From a virus: a DNA stretch of 64,000 nucleotides. The notes under the pieces were generated by a model. That model was not told the origin of the DNA, did not search any database, and saw only the letters and a list, made by a program, of their open reading frames with translations. The stretch lies in the IMG/VR virus record IMGVR_UViG_3300047476_001057, positions 1 through 64,000 of that record; one strand, 5' to 3'. This document shows, piece after piece, positions 11,676 to 30,402 of the stretch; position 1 is the stretch's first letter; every line of letters begins with the position of its first letter. A program made the position numbers and the translations under genes.

Positions 11676-11707
11676 ATTTATACTCCTTATTCCAGGTTAA
11701 GCTGGTG

Positions 11708-12122
11708 TGGAGGTGGTGGGAATCGAACCCACGTCCAATAAAGAAGACAACAAGTAAAACGTCTCACATGCTTAGTACTGACTATTACTTGTCTACTACC
11801 GTTAAAGTGATAGTACAAGGTTCATCTGCACCGTAAGAGCTGACCGTATTATGGTCCGATCCACCACCTGGTTTTAGCTATCAAGTGTGAAACCAGGAAA
11901 GTCCACTATACTTGCTCTTTCTGTTGCCAAGCCGAGCAGGCTCCGTAGGTTAGGCAGCGATAGCTACTTCACCGAAGAGAGATGCAAGAATTGCATCACC
12001 TTCTGCTACACGGTCAGACTGTGTCATGCCGTTTATTGTTTGCAGTTTGTTTAAGGACCACTTCTACCAAAGGTCCGCATGTTTACTTGCCTCTCGCTCT
12101 ACTGTCGAAACCAGGCACCCCC
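11708..12122 (-). ncRNA. ssrA: transfer-messenger RNA (tmRNA)
   Basis: 5' GGGGGTGCCTGGTTTCGAC; 3' T-arm GTGGG-TTCGATT-CCCAC and CACCTCC-A acceptor with G3:U pair; tag ORF 12030-11950 GMTQSDRVAEGDAILASLFGEVAIAA*. Confidence 0.93.
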
Positions 12123-12443: not shown

Positions 12444-12473
12444 GTTTGGTCTTTTATGGATTTTAAAAACTGT

Positions 12474-12541
12474 TAACCAGGGCTGGGTTCCAACCAGCGT
12501 TCATACCACAAAGGGGTGCCTATTCTCTTGGCTACCTGGTT
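12474..12541 (-). pseudogene. degenerate tRNA-like element
   Basis: AACCAGG/CCTGGTT acceptor, GCC/GGC D-stem, GCTGG-TTGGAAC-CCAGC T-arm; anticodon and variable region 3-4 nt short and poorly paired. Confidence 0.55.
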
Positions 12542-12944
12542 AATATCTTCTTTTTACTTTCTCTACGCTGTAGTCCCATTCACTGTCACTATCTAGTTTG
12601 AAGTAGTAATGACCACCGCTTTCTGTAGCCCGCAGCCTGTGTGACCACAGTGCAGTCTTCTTGAGTTCATAGATGATGTCTTCATTTCCAGACCAACCAA
12701 GCGTGTGTATCTCTAACAGTCCATCTTCTTCACGGATGGCATCATCATAAGTCCAGATGCTTTTGATGTAGTCTATGAGGCCACGGTAATCCATATACAG
12801 GTGACCGAATTTATATTTGCCCTCATCTTCTATGAGTATGTGCCAGTTCTTTATATAGTCCAACGCTGCCTCTGTAGGATAACCATCTTGGTCCATCAGC
12901 GTGTCAGGATAAGGGAACGATATTGATTCTAAAGTATCAGACAT
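12540..12944 (-). CDS. hypothetical protein
   Basis: 134-aa ORF. Confidence 0.65.
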   Translation of the reverse strand: MSDTLESISFPYPDTLMDQDGYPTEAALDYIKNWHILIEDEGKYKFGHLYMDYRGLIDYIKSIWTYDDAIREEDGLLEIHTLGWSGNEDIIYELKKTALWSHRLRATESGGHYYFKLDSDSEWDYSVEKVKRRY

Positions 12945-13490: not shown

Positions 13491-13605
13491 TTGCAGAGGT
13501 GGGATTTCAACCCACGTCCTCCGGGGAATCAACCCAGAACTCTATTCTCGCGGTAAGGATGACGGATTATCAGTTCCGGTCCTCTGCTTTCTGAGCTACT
13601 CTGCA
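13491..13605 (-). tRNA. tRNA-Ile(GAU)-like gene with a hairpin inserted in the D-loop (115 nt)
   Basis: TGCAGAG/CTCTGCA+A acceptor, GCTC/GAGT D-stem, CTGGG-TTGATTC-CCCGG anticodon arm, AGGAC variable loop, GTGGG-TTGAAAT-CCCAC T-arm. Confidence 0.65.
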
Positions 13606-25112: not shown

Positions 25113-25759
25113 TGAAAGAACCCAATCGTGTACGTAAGAATGAAATCAAGTTTGGCGTACAGTTAAATGAAGAGCAGAAAGAAGCCAAACAGTTGATAAG
25201 AGAAAATCAAGTGGTGGTGATTACAGGAAGAGCAGGATGTGGTAAGTCATTAGTTTCTGCACAGGTGGCTCTGGACTTTTTATTCCAGAAACAGATTCAG
25301 CAGATCCTGGTTACAAGAGCCACTATAGAAGTGGGTAACTCCCTTGGACTCTTACCTGGTTCTTTAGAAGACAAGTTTAATCCTTACTTGGAAGCATTCG
25401 TAGAGAACCTTCAGAAATGTGTAGACAAAAACCGAGTTGCACAGATGGTCAGTGAACAACAAGTGAGTGCAATGCCGGTGCAGTTTATTCGTGGTAAAAC
25501 CATAGATGATGTACTTATTGTAGAAGAAGCCCAGAATCTGACCAAAGCACAGATGCTGGCTATTCTTACACGTCTTGGTAAAACAGGAAAGATCATTATT
25601 AACGGGGACAATGAGCAGAAAGATATTAAGGATGAGTATAACGGATTGTCTTATGCTATTGAGCTTTCTAAAAAGATCACAGAAATAAAGTGGATCAAGT
25701 TAAAAGAAAACCATAGGTCTGACCTGGTAGGAAAGATCTTAGAATACGAGTATAAATGA
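25112..25759 (+). CDS. phoH: PhoH-family ATPase
   Basis: GRAGCGKS, FIRGKT, EEAQN, LTRLG, GDNEQ and HRS motifs. Confidence 0.92.
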   Translation: MKEPNRVRKNEIKFGVQLNEEQKEAKQLIRENQVVVITGRAGCGKSLVSAQVALDFLFQKQIQQILVTRATIEVGNSLGLLPGSLEDKFNPYLEAFVENLQKCVDKNRVAQMVSEQQVSAMPVQFIRGKTIDDVLIVEEAQNLTKAQMLAILTRLGKTGKIIINGDNEQKDIKDEYNGLSYAIELSKKITEIKWIKLKENHRSDLVGKILEYEYK

Positions 25760-26430
25760 GAGTGGTGTTTGACCATATCAACGGTTTTGGAAAGGTGAGT
25801 GACCAGGATTTCATTTACTCCCAACCTTATGGAGAACTGGAGCCAGGTGAATCAGCCGAGCAAGCACTTGAGCAGGGATGGATTCCCTGGGATGGATCCT
25901 GGTATAACCTACGTTCGGTAAGGATAGATGTTGCTTTATACAAACCACATGAAACTACCCGCAGGCTGGCCAAGAAAGTCCAGTGTAAGTATAAAAAGTT
26001 TGAGGACAAACCTATCTACAGGGAGCTGTATCAGAAGTATTGTGACTACCACGGGTTTGAAAGAACGATTACCTGGGAACAGTTATTTACTGGTGACATG
26101 ATTGCCTACTACGTAGATGAAAACATAGTGGGTTATTCTAACATTGAACGATACGGATCTGCACTGGTAGCTACGCAGTTTGTCTGGGACTATGAAGAGC
26201 CCAAGTTATCTCTTGGAAAAATTGCCCAGATGTACGAGTGTGAAACCGCAAAATCTTTAGGATGCACACATGTGTACATACTGGGTGGATATGAAGAATG
26301 TTGTTTGTATAAATCAGACTTCTACGGGTTTGAATGGTGGACCGGAAGAGGATGGCTTCAAGACAAAAAACTTTATAAAGAACTCTGTAAAAGAGATGAA
26401 AAAGCGGTGGTAAGTTATGACGATATATGA
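25756..26430 (+). CDS. aminoacyl-tRNA-protein transferase-like protein (ATE1/Bpt family)
   Basis: LEQGW...RSVRIDVALYKPHETTRR N-terminal segment and FVWDYEEPKLSLGK...AKSLG..HVYILGGY...LYKSDF C-terminal segment resemble ATE_N and ATE_C domains. Confidence 0.7.
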   Translation: MRVVFDHINGFGKVSDQDFIYSQPYGELEPGESAEQALEQGWIPWDGSWYNLRSVRIDVALYKPHETTRRLAKKVQCKYKKFEDKPIYRELYQKYCDYHGFERTITWEQLFTGDMIAYYVDENIVGYSNIERYGSALVATQFVWDYEEPKLSLGKIAQMYECETAKSLGCTHVYILGGYEECCLYKSDFYGFEWWTGRGWLQDKKLYKELCKRDEKAVVSYDDI

Positions 26431-26611: not shown

Positions 26612-27120
26612 TTAGATTATTTGATATACAAAATGGAAAGGTGACAGCTTCAGAACATTGCTATACGCTGAAGTTTTTAAAGGATATTATGGATGAGTAT
26701 CCGGATGAACATTTACGGATATATGCGTATCTGTTTTACATGACTTGTCCTAATCCTGATCTTAATCCATTTTTTGATGTACCAGAACGGGATAAAGAGG
26801 AAATTATTTTACAAGAGGTGGATGCAGATTTTTCTACAGATGATGAACTAATCACACATGCTATAAAAAGATGTAAACAGTTGTATGAAACTCCAACATA
26901 TAGAGCATATGAAGGCATTAAAGTGGCTTTGGATAACATGGCCAATTTTATGAGAACTGAAACAGTAACATCTGGACGTGACGGATCAGCCACCGCTATT
27001 TTAAGAATAGCTGAACGATTTGACCAGGTGAGGCAATCTTTTAAAGGTGTTTATAGAGACCTGATGGAAGAACAACAATCACAAGTAAGAGGAGGACAAA
27101 ACCTAGCATATGATCAATAA
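26608..27120 (+). CDS. conserved hypothetical protein, possible terminase small subunit
   Basis: 170-aa helical protein about 1 kb upstream of terL; TerS role inferred from position only. Confidence 0.45.
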   Translation: MIRLFDIQNGKVTASEHCYTLKFLKDIMDEYPDEHLRIYAYLFYMTCPNPDLNPFFDVPERDKEEIILQEVDADFSTDDELITHAIKRCKQLYETPTYRAYEGIKVALDNMANFMRTETVTSGRDGSATAILRIAERFDQVRQSFKGVYRDLMEEQQSQVRGGQNLAYDQ

Positions 27121-27454
27121 CCTACATCACTACAGAGCAACTGTTACACGAATTTTAGATGGAGACACCGTAGAATTAGTAATTGACCTGGGCTTTACGG
27201 TTCAATGGAAATCTACCTGCAGACTCTTTGGTATTAACACTCCAGAACTGACAAGCAAAGACCCGCTAATTCGTGCTAAAGCACTAGAAGCAAAACAGTA
27301 TTTGATAGACAAGCTACCGCTAGGTGGCCAGGTGTATATCAAAAGCCGTGAGCTAGATAAATACGGAAGACCACTAGCAGATTTATATTATGCTGCAGAG
27401 TTTAAACATATTAACAAAGAGCTGCTTGACCTAGCACTAGCAGTGAAAATGTAA
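27110..27454 (+). CDS. thermonuclease (SNase-like)
   Basis: RILDGDT, RLFGINTPE and DKYGRPLA motifs. Confidence 0.9.
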   Translation: MINNLHHYRATVTRILDGDTVELVIDLGFTVQWKSTCRLFGINTPELTSKDPLIRAKALEAKQYLIDKLPLGGQVYIKSRELDKYGRPLADLYYAAEFKHINKELLDLALAVKM

Positions 27455-27553
27455 GGTGGTGGAACTGGCAGACACGCTACCCTGTCTCGGTGGTGCTCTC
27501 TTAGCGGTTTTTGAACCACGGAGAGTTTGGACGTTCGACTCGTCCCCTTACAG
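27450..27553 (+). tRNA. non-canonical tRNA: Leu-type body, GUC (Asp) anticodon, 35-nt variable arm (104 nt)
   Basis: TGTAAGG/CCTTACA+G acceptor; GTG-GAACTGGCAGA-CAC D-arm; CTACC-CTGTCTC-GGTGG anticodon arm; GCTCTC/GAGAGT long variable stem; GGACG-TTCGACT-CGTCC T-arm. Confidence 0.8.
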
Positions 27554-27576: not shown

Positions 27577-27873
27577 ATGGAAACGATGGATTTCGGTGGA
27601 GCTATCAAAGCTCTGAAAGCAGGTCAGAAAGTAGCACGTACAGGATGGAACGGTAAGAATATGTTCCTGACACTGGCAGGTGGCTACTCCATTCCTAAAG
27701 ACAAACTCAGACCAGGTACGCACATCACTGCTGAGTTTTTAGAAGCTCGTGGTGTAGATGAGATGGTCATCGTACCACATATTGACATGTGGACTGCTCA
27801 AAACAACTATGTATCCGGTTGGCTTGCATCTCAGACAGACATGTTAGCTGAAGACTGGATAGTAATAAACTAA
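27577..27873 (+). CDS. DUF2829-domain protein
   Basis: MDFGGAIKALKAGQKVARTGWNGKNMF...WLASQTDMLAEDW signature. Confidence 0.88.
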   Translation: METMDFGGAIKALKAGQKVARTGWNGKNMFLTLAGGYSIPKDKLRPGTHITAEFLEARGVDEMVIVPHIDMWTAQNNYVSGWLASQTDMLAEDWIVIN

Positions 27874-27941: not shown

Positions 27942-28208
27942 ATGAAAAATGAAGTTTACACAGATCTTGAACCGTTTTCTACAGAACACCCTAGTGGACC
28001 TCGGAGTGCTCTTTACGATTTTGTCTTCCATTTTAATCCTTACACTAGCCTCTGGTCTGCTATTCATCGTGATGATTATCTGCAGTATTGGAGTGATGGC
28101 AGTCATTCCCGTGTTATTCGTAGTAAATCTGTTGATACTCTTCAGGAAATTATTATAAAGACAGGCGGAGTGTTGAGTAAAATAGAACAGTTGACCCGTG
28201 AGCAGTAA
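27942..28208 (+). CDS. hypothetical protein
   Basis: 88-aa ORF with CCTATG start, overlapping the terL start. Confidence 0.65.
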   Translation: MKNEVYTDLEPFSTEHPSGPRSALYDFVFHFNPYTSLWSAIHRDDYLQYWSDGSHSRVIRSKSVDTLQEIIIKTGGVLSKIEQLTREQ

Positions 28209-30402
28209 CATTTATAAAGAGGTTCCTACTTACGACAATGGTCAGTGGACAGTTACTACGTTTTATACCCGGGAAGAGTTCCGGGATTTTGTGTTGTTCC
28301 TGTTCAAAGAGCCTGGTCAGTATAACTTTGATGAAACCACCCGGATCTTCAATGCAGAAGGACGTAAGTTTCAGAAACAAGGATACTATTGTAATGCTCC
28401 TATTAAGAGTAAGGACTTCATTGCCTACTGGGATGACCAAAAAAACAAATGTCGCAACGGTATTATTGTAAAAGGAAACGGAAACACCTGGTTTGTTCCC
28501 AGGGATTACTATATGTGGCTAAACTTTCTTCCCATCTATGACAAGGAAGAAAAACGTTTTGACTTTGCTAAGGTGAGAGATGCCCAGTATCACATGGCAC
28601 TCTATGAACACCTGGCTGAACTGCACTACAAGCATGCTGTTATTTTAAAGAAACGTCAGATAGCCTCTTCTTATTTCCATATGGCTAAGCTGATCAACCA
28701 GTGGGTGTTTGAAGCAGGTTCTATTTGTAAGATTGGTTCTTCTTTAAAAGACTACATTAACGAGAAAGGATCCTGGAAGTTTCTCAATGAGTATAGAAAC
28801 TTCTTGAATGAACACACTGCTTGGTATAGACCAGCAGAACCGGACAAAGTGTTTGCCTGGGAACAGAAGATCAAGGTGCGTATAAATGGTCGTGATACAT
28901 ATAGAGGATTAAAGAGTACCATCAACGGATATTCATTTGAAAAAGATCCTACCAATGGTGTCGGTGGACCGGTTACTTACTTCTTTCATGAGGAAGCAGG
29001 TATTGCTCCTAAAATGGATGATACATATGGATTCATCAAACCTGCACTGAAATCTGGTCACATCATTACCGGTCAGTTTATAGCTGCAGGATCTGTGGGT
29101 GATCTGGACCAGTGTGAACCGATGAAAGAGTACATCATGCACCCGGAAGAAAACGGGTTTTATGGTGTAGAAAGTAGTTTATTAGATAAGGACGGTACGA
29201 TTAGTATAACTGGTCTGTTTATACCAGAGCAATGGAGTATGCCTCCTTATATAGATGATTATGGTAACTCTAAAGTGGAAGAAGCTCTGGCTGCTCTTGA
29301 TGCACAGTTTGAAAAAGCTAAGCGTGATCTTGCACCTGAAGCTTATCAGTTAGAAGTATCACAGCATCCTCGTAATATAGAAGAAGCATTTGCTACCAGA
29401 AAGGTGAGCGTGTTTCCTCCACATTTACTTAGTAAACAACTGCAGCGTATATCAGATAAAGTTTATCCCGTAGAATATCTTGATCTGTCAAGAAATGCAG
29501 AAGGAAAGATTATTGATAAACCAAGCAGAAAGATAGCTATATCAGAGTTTCCCATTTCTAAGAAGACAGAAGATAAAGAGGGAGTAATATGTGTGTATGA
29601 ACGACCTGCTAAAGATCCCACGTTTGGTATGTATTACGCTTCTGTGGACCCAGTAGGAGAAGGTAAGACTACAACTTCAGACTCTTTATGTGCTATTTAC
29701 ATATACAAAAACCCAGTAGAGGTTATTAAAGACCATGGTAATGGACAAATAGAAAACCATATAGAGCGTGACAAAATAGTTGCATCCTGGTGTGGGAGGT
29801 TTGATGATCTTAACAAAACCCATGAACGGCTGGAGATGCTCATAGAGTGGTATAATGCCTGGACAGTGGTCGAAAATAACGTAGCCCTGTTTATCCAGTA
29901 CATGATTTCTAAAAAGAAGCAGCGTTATCTGGTACCCAAGGACATGATCTTATTCCTAAAAGACATTGGTGCCAACCGCAACGTGTTCCAGGAATACGGG
30001 TGGAAAAACGTAGGTACTCTGTTTAAGGGAACCATCCTGTCTTATGGGATTGAGTTTTTAAAAGAGGAGCTGGATCACGAGACCAAAGCAGATGGAGAGA
30101 TCGTCAAGACTATCTATGGGGTGGAACGTATACCTGATCCTATGCTTTTAAAAGAGATGCAGGCTTATCAGGATGGTGTGAACGTGGACCGGTTAGTAGC
30201 TTTTTGTGCCCTGATAGCTTTTGCTAAGGTACAGCAGTCCAATAGAGGTTTTACTAAACGTGTAGAAGTTACAGATAAAAAGTTGGATAACTCCCAGAAA
30301 TTTAGTAAATTAAATTGGGGGCCTTTTAGACACATGGGCTCTTCTAAAGGAAGGTCTATAGGTATGCAAAAACCTAGAAACCCTTTTAAAAATCTTAGTT
30401 AA
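28198..30402 (+). CDS. terL: terminase large subunit
   Basis: YYMWLNF, LKKRQIASSY (Walker A region), FHEEAG (Walker B), ASVDPV and VENN nuclease motifs. Confidence 0.92.
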   Translation: MSSNIYKEVPTYDNGQWTVTTFYTREEFRDFVLFLFKEPGQYNFDETTRIFNAEGRKFQKQGYYCNAPIKSKDFIAYWDDQKNKCRNGIIVKGNGNTWFVPRDYYMWLNFLPIYDKEEKRFDFAKVRDAQYHMALYEHLAELHYKHAVILKKRQIASSYFHMAKLINQWVFEAGSICKIGSSLKDYINEKGSWKFLNEYRNFLNEHTAWYRPAEPDKVFAWEQKIKVRINGRDTYRGLKSTINGYSFEKDPTNGVGGPVTYFFHEEAGIAPKMDDTYGFIKPALKSGHIITGQFIAAGSVGDLDQCEPMKEYIMHPEENGFYGVESSLLDKDGTISITGLFIPEQWSMPPYIDDYGNSKVEEALAALDAQFEKAKRDLAPEAYQLEVSQHPRNIEEAFATRKVSVFPPHLLSKQLQRISDKVYPVEYLDLSRNAEGKIIDKPSRKIAISEFPISKKTEDKEGVICVYERPAKDPTFGMYYASVDPVGEGKTTTSDSLCAIYIYKNPVEVIKDHGNGQIENHIERDKIVASWCGRFDDLNKTHERLEMLIEWYNAWTVVENNVALFIQYMISKKKQRYLVPKDMILFLKDIGANRNVFQEYGWKNVGTLFKGTILSYGIEFLKEELDHETKADGEIVKTIYGVERIPDPMLLKEMQAYQDGVNVDRLVAFCALIAFAKVQQSNRGFTKRVEVTDKKLDNSQKFSKLNWGPFRHMGSSKGRSIGMQKPRNPFKNLS

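Follow-up and report, generated by a model that had tools for sequence, protein, structure and literature searches.

A short-armed phage RNA from a Bacteroidota family of tRNA-shaped RNAs that joins a leucine-type body to conserved aspartate determinants

The window analysed here is a stretch of 64,000 nucleotides, positions 1 to 64,000 of the IMG/VR virus record IMGVR_UViG_3300047476_001057. Within it, a tRNA-shaped element occupies most of the 122-nt gap between a staphylococcal-nuclease-like ORF and a Tad2-like ORF and lies on the same strand as both (Table 1). The 5' strand of its acceptor stem overlaps the TAA stop codon (27452–27454) of the upstream ORF. Read directly, the sequence gives a cloverleaf with a Leu-type D arm, the loop CUGUCUC, G73 and an extra arm of 35 nt. 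The acceptor stem pairs as TGTAAGG/CCTTACA, and the D-arm loop, enclosed by the stem GTG/CAC, reads GAACTGGCAGA; the 11-nt D loop GAACUGGCAGA contains A14, A15, G18 and G19 in a tRNA-Leu-like pattern. In the variable region GCTCTCT pairs with GGAGAGT to form the outer stem and GGUU pairs with AACC in the inner hairpin, and the arm terminates in AACCAC followed by the 3' strand of the stem, as it does in short-arm bacterial paralogues. CCA is not encoded at the 3' end of the RNA, where CUU comes after G73. A first-pass annotation had reported the loop as CT-GTC-TC with U37, a G discriminator and a 35-nt variable region with a two-part stem, and the sequence reads exactly so.

Table 1. Positions of the tRNA-shaped element, its parts and nearby genes in the window.
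Feature	Position	Strand	Description
tRNA-shaped RNA element	27450–27553	+	
Acceptor stem, 5' strand, UGUAAGG (TGTAAGG)	27450–27456	+	U1 and G2 invariant or nearly so in the family
D arm	27459–27475	+	3-bp stem GUG/CAC, 27459–61 paired with 27473–75
Anticodon-type arm	27477–27493	+	stem CUACC/GGUGG; loop CUGUCUC at 27482–27488, with GUC (G34 U35 C36) at 27484–27486, U37 at 27487 and C38 at 27488
Variable region, 35 nt	27494–27528	+	outer 7-bp stem (27495–27501 with 27520–27526) plus inner hairpin (27506–09 with 27514–17)
T arm	27529–27545	+	stem GGACG/CGUCC; canonical T loop UUCGACU
Acceptor stem, 3' strand, CCUUACA, with discriminator and C74	27546–27554	+	G73 at 27553; invariant C74 at 27554
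Staphylococcal-nuclease-like ORF	27110–27454	+	directly upstream; context only
Tad2-like (anti-Thoeris) ORF	27577–27873	+	directly downstream; context only
ATE_C-like aminoacyl-tRNA-protein transferase homologue	25756–26430	+	context; not considered part of the element
Terminase gene	28198–30402		accessory-gene island with the RNA slot lies just before it

At minimum free energy the RNA folds as a cloverleaf that carries a long extra arm. Its folding-energy z-score is unremarkable (-0.99), so neither the fold nor its energy is proof of the RNA when taken alone. The molecule has the 7-bp acceptor stem, the 5-bp anticodon and T stems, a T loop of the form UUCRA, G18G19, U8 and A14 of canonical elongator tRNAs; of the two loop features expected of an elongator, U33 and a purine at 37, it has U33 but carries U37. 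When the + strand was scanned, no sigma-70-type promoter-like or terminator-like site belonging to the RNA itself was found.

Standard detectors pass over this gene. Over the full 126,629-bp (126.6-kb) virus record default ARAGORN makes no tRNA call, at this RNA or elsewhere, and the Rfam tRNA model (RF00005), run on 401 bases, gives no match to it even at E<=10. With introns allowed, ARAGORN makes a single call in the genome, namely this RNA as a tRNA-Glu(CTC) with a 13-nt intron. We reject that call as an artefact: what it takes for an intron is the anticodon arm, conserved in homologues with compensatory changes. Long-armed relatives of the RNA likewise go unscored by the Rfam tRNA model at its gathering threshold. 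Rfam 15 has no model that scores the long-armed tRNA-like family, and full-text literature searches and reviews gave no description of it. Annotations of phage and Bacteroidota genomes now overlook such genes or give them a wrong label, tRNA-Asp or intron-containing tRNA-Glu among others. The idea that the long arms harbour a small ribozyme or another known motif was also discarded, as Rfam at gathering threshold returns only ordinary tRNAs for eight long-arm loci.

Related phage loci were gathered through their flanking proteins, and the core of the RNA was described by a covariance model, R1. This model matches 13 of the protein-anchored loci together with 6 that have larger arms, and it finds about 75 more in IMG/VR phage loci gathered by sequence pattern, as well as 11 in loci anchored by a motif inside the long arm. 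By covariance model, homologues in IMG/VR phages number more than 100. A sequence-pattern scan of bacterial genomes returned at least 120 stretches, nearly all from Bacteroidota, with carriers among Chitinophagaceae, Pedobacter and other Sphingobacteriales, Cytophagales, Saprospiraceae and Flavobacteriales. From the pattern matches 134 bacterial copies were parsed, some of them arranged in tandem with as many as five in an array.

When 81 distinct sequences from phages and bacteria are aligned, the structure they have in common is the cloverleaf: 98.4% of the cells at stem positions are paired, and 16 of the 20 pairs show compensatory (both-sided) change. None of 500 shuffles matched the real pairing, and sliding the partner columns left only 52–66% paired. 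All four stems are kept through compensatory changes in phage and bacterial homologues, so the covariation that the first-pass annotation had proposed looking for in related phages is indeed there. Among the protein-anchored phage loci, some copies are near-identical in the RNA though their flanking proteins are only 52–64% identical; others show compensatory changes in every stem and have an extra arm that measures 25, 88 or about 80 nt. R1 scores the window RNA at 127 bits (by construction) and bacterial members at 37–80 bits. The core of the window RNA shows 84% identity to short-arm bacterial paralogues; it is nearest to those with arms of 39–44 nt in Sphingobacteriales-type genomes, with which it has the AACCAC-ending arm design in common. 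It also carries the core signature of the family, which consists of U1-A72, G2-C71, the Leu-type D arm, a loop of the form YNGUCYC, G73-C74 and an enlarged, helical variable arm. From these sequence comparisons we conclude that the stretch at 27450–27553 is a genuine RNA gene, and that it encodes a phage representative, with a short arm, of a large family of tRNA-shaped RNAs that is native to Bacteroidota. The same comparisons indicate that the family was cellular first and is not a phage invention, and that the chimeric make-up noted at this locus is a family trait and no one-off. A second odd tRNA-like gene in the window (13491–13605) has no homologues among the gathered loci.

The positions that are invariant or nearly so across the family are U1-A72, G2-C71, the Leu-type D arm, G34 U35 C36, C38, G73 and C74. 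U1-A72 is present in 134 of 134 bacterial copies and in 78 of the 81 aligned sequences, G2-C71 in all 81 of the latter, and G73 and C74 in every one of the 134 parsed bacterial copies. Pair 11-24 is U-A in 67 of the 81 aligned sequences and C-G in 10. Neither U33 nor a purine at 37, the loop features associated with decoding, is conserved: position 33 can be U, G or C, position 37 is U or rarely C (C37 occurs in two close relatives of the window among the protein-anchored loci), and position 32 is C or U. Among the 134 bacterial copies the loop reads UUGUCUC in 59, CUGUCUC in 51, UCGUCUC in 16, CGGUCUC in 6, and UGGUCUC and CCGUCUC in 1 each; phage loops vary in the same way at position 33, and a few of them have C37. 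To our knowledge, G or C at 33, like a pyrimidine at 37, is nearly unknown in elongator tRNAs.

As the initial search pattern had fixed part of the loop, conservation was rechecked on three samples that were blind to it: the protein-anchored loci, the loci anchored by the long-arm motif, and bacterial loci reached via the neighbouring regulator gene. G34 U35 C36 and C38 are kept in all three. The strong aspartate determinants are G73, G34, U35, C36 and C38 (PMC9976931), and given the loop-blind conservation these five are exactly the bases that the family never changes. The first-pass annotation had named the same five as Asp determinants in this RNA; they are present, and in the family they do not vary. 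The extra arm, by contrast with these fixed positions, ranges from 21 to 131 nt over the family (21–102 nt in phages and 38–131 nt in bacteria). Long arms are built on a frame, GAUAAAC ... GGGU(U/C)GACCAC ... GCUAAC, with a lineage-specific palindrome inside. Some members have a hairpin inserted in the D loop, and in some phage copies this hairpin bears a second UGUCUC loop, which reads UAUCUC in one of them (L256).

With bacterial class II tRNA-Leu the RNA shares the 7/5 acceptor/T stems, the 3-bp D stem with G13..A22, the D loop GAAYUGGCAGAC (A14, A15, G18G19), U48 opposite A15 and a helical extra arm. R1 cross-matches host tRNA-Leu at up to 51–53 bits, and a normal tRNA-Leu(CAG) fills the same slot in sister phages; the Leu-type class II body proposed in the first pass is supported on both counts. 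The RNA departs from tRNA-Leu in having G73 in all members where tRNA-Leu has A73, and the loop YNGUCUC where tRNA-Leu has a Leu anticodon (NAG or NAA). It further differs in U1-A72, in a position 33 that is not fixed, in the pyrimidine at 37, in an arm that reaches 131 nt and can branch, and in receiving no score from the Rfam tRNA model. With bacterial class I tRNA-Asp(GUC) it has in common the five strong determinants and G2-C71 (PMC9976931). Here the differences are U1-A72 at the pair where tRNA-Asp strictly conserves G1-C72, a class II long arm in place of a 4–5-nt loop, U37 in place of A37, the lack of a conserved U33, and coexistence with normal tRNA-Asp in phage arrays.

The surroundings of the gene differ between phages and bacteria. 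About half of the distinct phage copies sit in one slot in relatives of the window phage, between a conserved 170-aa gene on one side and a small ORF, terminase and portal on the other. The contents of the slot vary among these relatives, with the nuclease, Tad2 and ordinary tRNA genes occurring in differing combinations. The remaining phage copies are found within or next to large tRNA arrays, in unrelated phages that are often jumbo phages. At eight of these array loci the RNA is accompanied by a normal tRNA-Asp of 73–77 nt with the loop YUGUCAC; the RNA thus supplies an additional function and is not the phage's tRNA-Asp. In bacteria, a divergent 156-aa Lrp/AsnC-family regulator gene lies about 150 nt upstream of the RNA in 81 of 110 loci. 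The best solved relative of this regulator is E. coli AsnC (2CG4, E 1.3e-32), followed by another Lrp-family member at 3.5e-21, and by this comparison the protein is specifically AsnC-like, by a wide margin. Four of its six closest homologues in a class-level sample adjoin the RNA. No homologue of the regulator was found in any phage locus or in the whole genome of the window phage; the phage copies are thus uncoupled from it.

The reading that we prefer, and in which we have about even confidence as a whole, is that aspartate is loaded onto the RNA, that the RNA takes no part in decoding, and that it may have a role in Asp/Asn metabolism. Host tRNA-processing enzymes would probably excise it from a longer transcript, after which CCA would be added. 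It is expected to fold as an L, since none of the tertiary-contact bases is missing and the insertions all fall at sites that an L-shaped tRNA tolerates. Charging with aspartate by the host AspRS is predicted because, apart from the generic tRNA set, conservation is confined to G34, U35, C36, C38, G73 and G2-C71. With U33 not conserved and a pyrimidine at position 37, decoding on the ribosome would be poor or absent, and the RNA would accordingly do its work off the ribosome. In bacteria the AsnC-type regulator probably controls the RNA, and this control forms part of the best-supported mechanism. Our most specific guess is that the RNA carries or senses Asp/Asn, possibly by Asp-to-Asn amidation on the RNA itself. 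It is prompted by the invariant U1-A72, a pair that GatCAB reads on tRNA-Asn, and by the adjoining AsnC-like regulator. In the phage copy, where the regulator and most of the arm have been lost, the core RNA would be supplied free of regulator control during infection. The Asp/Asn idea is coherent but hypothetical.

A fuller version of this guess can be offered tentatively, as a possibility that we rate well short of even. A discriminating AspRS would charge the RNA (through GUC, C38 and G73), GatCAB would amidate the aspartate (through U1-A72), and the loop would bar the resulting Asn-RNA from translation. The outcome would be an Asn route or sensor under AsnC control, captured by phages in a regulator-free, arm-trimmed form, and phages with such an RNA would keep the asparagine route open during infection. 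The U1-A72 pair is the determinant by which bacterial GatCAB recognises tRNA-Asn for amidation of its Asp, whereas a supernumerary base at 20A blocks amidation of tRNA-Asp (PMC1635274); the Leu-type D loop of the RNA has extra bases and is longer than that of tRNA-Asn. Like the tRNA-Asn of the route that uses a non-discriminating AspRS and GatCAB, the RNA has U1-A72 and G73 (PMC1635274) and is probably charged with Asp by an AspRS, and its bacterial copies adjoin the AsnC-like regulator. It differs from that tRNA in reading GUC and not GUU, in its class II body with the extra D-loop bases, and in that it is probably not delivered to the ribosome.

The distribution of asparagine enzymes can be set beside this proposal. 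GatB is found in every RNA-positive genome among the matches listed. It is also found in 126 of 151 sampled Bacteroidota genomes, far more than carry the RNA (the number of carriers being an "at least" count, and R1 also matching tRNA-Leu), and so it is not specific to carriers. RNA-positive genomes have AsnRS in 5 of 5 cases and an AsnB-type synthase in at least 4 of 5, so an RNA-based route to Asn is not metabolically required. AsnA is absent from 10 carriers, which says nothing because the enzyme is rare everywhere (4 of the 151 sampled Bacteroidota genomes); the notion that the RNA replaces AsnA was set aside as uninformative on the same count. At the four asnA loci examined, a similar AsnC gene was not found within 1.5 kb. 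AspRS approaches its tRNA from the variable-loop side, and a long arm might therefore clash with it. Finally, as the phage copies are without both the regulator and the large arm, the use made of the RNA by phages may differ from that made by their hosts.

Other functions were weighed against Asp charging off the ribosome. The first-pass annotation had suggested a tRNA-Asp that resists host anticodon nucleases, that is, a working isoacceptor for GAY codons whose loop flanks and class II body evade the nuclease so that it serves as a backup during infection. Several observations fit: GUC is strictly kept while the flanking loop positions vary, the gene sits in an accessory island next to a Tad2-like anti-defence gene, and in other phages the RNA lies inside tRNA arrays. 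Phage tRNAs reported to escape anticodon nucleases (PMC10264068) are likewise phage-borne and show this very pattern, with the anticodon kept and the loop flanks changed. However, the same loop, with U37 and a free position 33, is found in chromosomal Bacteroidota copies under the AsnC-type regulator, so the odd loop is inherited and not a phage adaptation; in this the RNA differs from the escape tRNAs, its loop not having arisen in phages. The residues allowed at 33 and 37 also speak against an elongator, and a normal tRNA-Asp stands beside the RNA in phage arrays. We know of no nuclease specific for tRNA-Asp in such hosts, and we regard the backup role as unlikely. We are similarly sceptical of a decoy or regulator that could act uncharged, titrating or scaffolding AspRS, GatCAB, a modification enzyme or a defence nuclease. 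The second UGUCUC loop on the inserted D-loop hairpin of some phage copies would suit such a role, but it reads UAUCUC in L256 and is thus not strictly kept. Lineage-specific palindromes in the large arms could permit RNA dimerisation, and the bacterial tandem arrays of up to five copies suggest a dosage effect. Against this, conservation is as strict at G73, C74 and the top of the acceptor stem as it is in the loop, which fits an RNA whose 3' end is used.

Charging with serine (or leucine) through the class II body, leading to mistranslation or recoding of Asp codons, is in our judgement very improbable, and the Ser-charged mistranslator of the first-pass annotation finds no support here. A long variable arm and G73, which SerRS reads (PMC7609411), are both present. 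The body is Leu-like, but LeuRS needs A73 and the RNA has G73. While tRNA-Ser has C11-G24, the Leu-like U11-A24 predominates in the family at the frequency given above, and the arm, which ranges over 21–131 nt, varies in geometry as well. SerRS ignores the anticodon and C38, so their conservation would be purposeless under Ser charging, and a proteome-wide change of Asp to Ser would harm phage and host alike. Least probable of all, in our estimate, is that the RNA is a dedicated aminoacyl donor for the ATE_C-like transferase. In the window the two genes are at most 1.1 kb apart, and dedicated non-decoding tRNAs for aminoacyl-transferases do exist, as with S. aureus tRNA-Gly and the Fem enzymes. 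Direct BLAST, though, finds the transferase in only 8 of the 34 related loci with both flanks visible; four transferase loci are without the RNA, and seven have a normal tRNA-Leu(CAG) instead. An ATE_C homologue is absent from three RNA-carrying jumbo-phage records (one of them complete) in the same search that finds the copy in the window genome, and it is absent from the recurrent neighbour clusters of the bacterial loci. This link, too, had been put forward in the first pass; it is rejected on gene distribution, which already largely refutes it.

If Asp charging off the ribosome is borne out, a widespread tRNA-derived RNA would have left decoding while keeping the recognition code of one synthetase, and it would be tied to AsnC-type amino-acid regulation. 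Phages would then be shown to gain such RNAs as auxiliary genes beside tRNAs and tmRNA. The family extends over several Bacteroidota orders and more than 100 phage contigs, and it is invisible to standard tRNA and Rfam annotation. It would also make a clear natural addition to the short list of chargeable tRNAs with other jobs. Like the cell-wall tRNA-Gly of S. aureus and the allo-tRNAs (PMC5389517), the RNA is tRNA-shaped, predicted to be chargeable and off the decoding consensus, and some of those molecules share a mismatch between anticodon and body. They are of ordinary size, however, and none of them shows an arm of 21–131 nt, a Leu body bearing the Asp set, or a neighbour of AsnC type; the allo-tRNAs, moreover, have 8/4 or 9/3 stems (PMC5389517), whereas those of the RNA are 7/5.

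In long-arm members of the GUC RNA family, tRNA-like RNAs with an anticodon-type loop, the variable arm carries a palindrome whose site is constant and whose sequence differs by lineage (e.g. in loci L111, L153, L101, L099 and L298): GCGCGC, GUGCAC, GCUUGCAAGC, ACUGUGCACAGU and GGUCGACC are the forms seen. The 6-nt forms are unable to fold into hairpins and may therefore be sites of loop-loop dimerisation. Some phage copies (L101, L090, L087 and L094) have a hairpin of ~21 nt inserted within the D loop, and the UGUCUC motif known from the anticodon loop recurs in the loop of this insert; UAUCUC stands at the same place in the insert of L256.

To GUC RNA the phage adds a full tmRNA and a second non-canonical tRNA-like gene, so that it carries several translation-related RNAs while canonical tRNAs are absent. 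The second tRNA-like gene, called as tRNA-Leu(GAG) by ARAGORN when introns are allowed, holds a hairpin of ~45 nt in its D loop. Its anticodon loop is UUGAUUC, with U37 and C38 as in GUC RNA, its T loop is UUGAAAU and its position 73 is A; no homologues of it were found among the fetched loci. The stretch called as tRNA-Gln(UUG)-like folds into a poor cloverleaf. On one IMG/VR contig (L253), GUC RNA is accompanied by four additional tRNA-like genes. These have a Leu-type D arm and A73, and share their acceptor and T arms, while their middle sections, of 30–90 nt, are irregular and lack a clear anticodon arm.

Further features of the window and of contig L253
Feature	Sequence	Position	Strand	Support
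Full tmRNA	window	11705-12122	-	Rfam 90.4 bits; ARAGORN tag peptide, end AIAA
tRNA-Gln(UUG)-like call, low score	window	12472-12542	-	ARAGORN, relaxed threshold only
Second non-canonical tRNA-like gene	window	13491-13605	-	Rfam tRNA 42.9 bits
ATE_C-domain gene (arginyl/leucyl-tRNA-protein transferase type)	window	25756-26430	+	E 2.8e-7
Tad2-like (anti-Thoeris) gene	window	27577-27873	+	PF11195, E 1.1e-24
Additional tRNA-like gene	L253	1958-2060		
Additional tRNA-like gene	L253	10174-10280		
Additional tRNA-like gene	L253	10395-10517		
Additional tRNA-like gene	L253	10651-10808		

Among the protein genes of the window, the Tad2-like gene lies directly 3' of GUC RNA, and the pairing is seen again in L002, L012 and L013. 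The ATE_C-domain gene is 69–75% identical across 24 related phage loci, seven of which have a normal tRNA-Leu(CAG) ~1 kb downstream of it. This gene would encode an N-end-rule-type transferase in a phage.

In bacterial genomes the RNA gene can occur in tandem arrays, with five copies at 172-nt spacing in L378 and three each in L402 and L303. Short-arm and long-arm paralogues adjoin one another in Sphingobacteriales genomes (L299, L353, L375, L387 and L395). A TrmB-type tRNA (m7G46) methyltransferase gene follows ~200 nt downstream at 13 bacterial loci (e.g. L336:5591-6298), which probably represent a single lineage. The asparaginyl-tRNA synthetase gene is 6 kb from the RNA gene in genome G014 (C2) and 10 kb from it in G004 (C1); the two genes are distant in G142 and G006, and the proximity may be due to chance. 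As to asparagine routes, GatB_N was not matched at E<=1e-10 in three of the four sampled AsnA-bearing Bacteroidota: G038 is named among the sample's unmatched genomes, and neither G134 nor G138 is on the list of matched ones. Most other sampled Bacteroidota have GatB and lack AsnA. Together these distributions hint that the two routes substitute for one another in this phylum.
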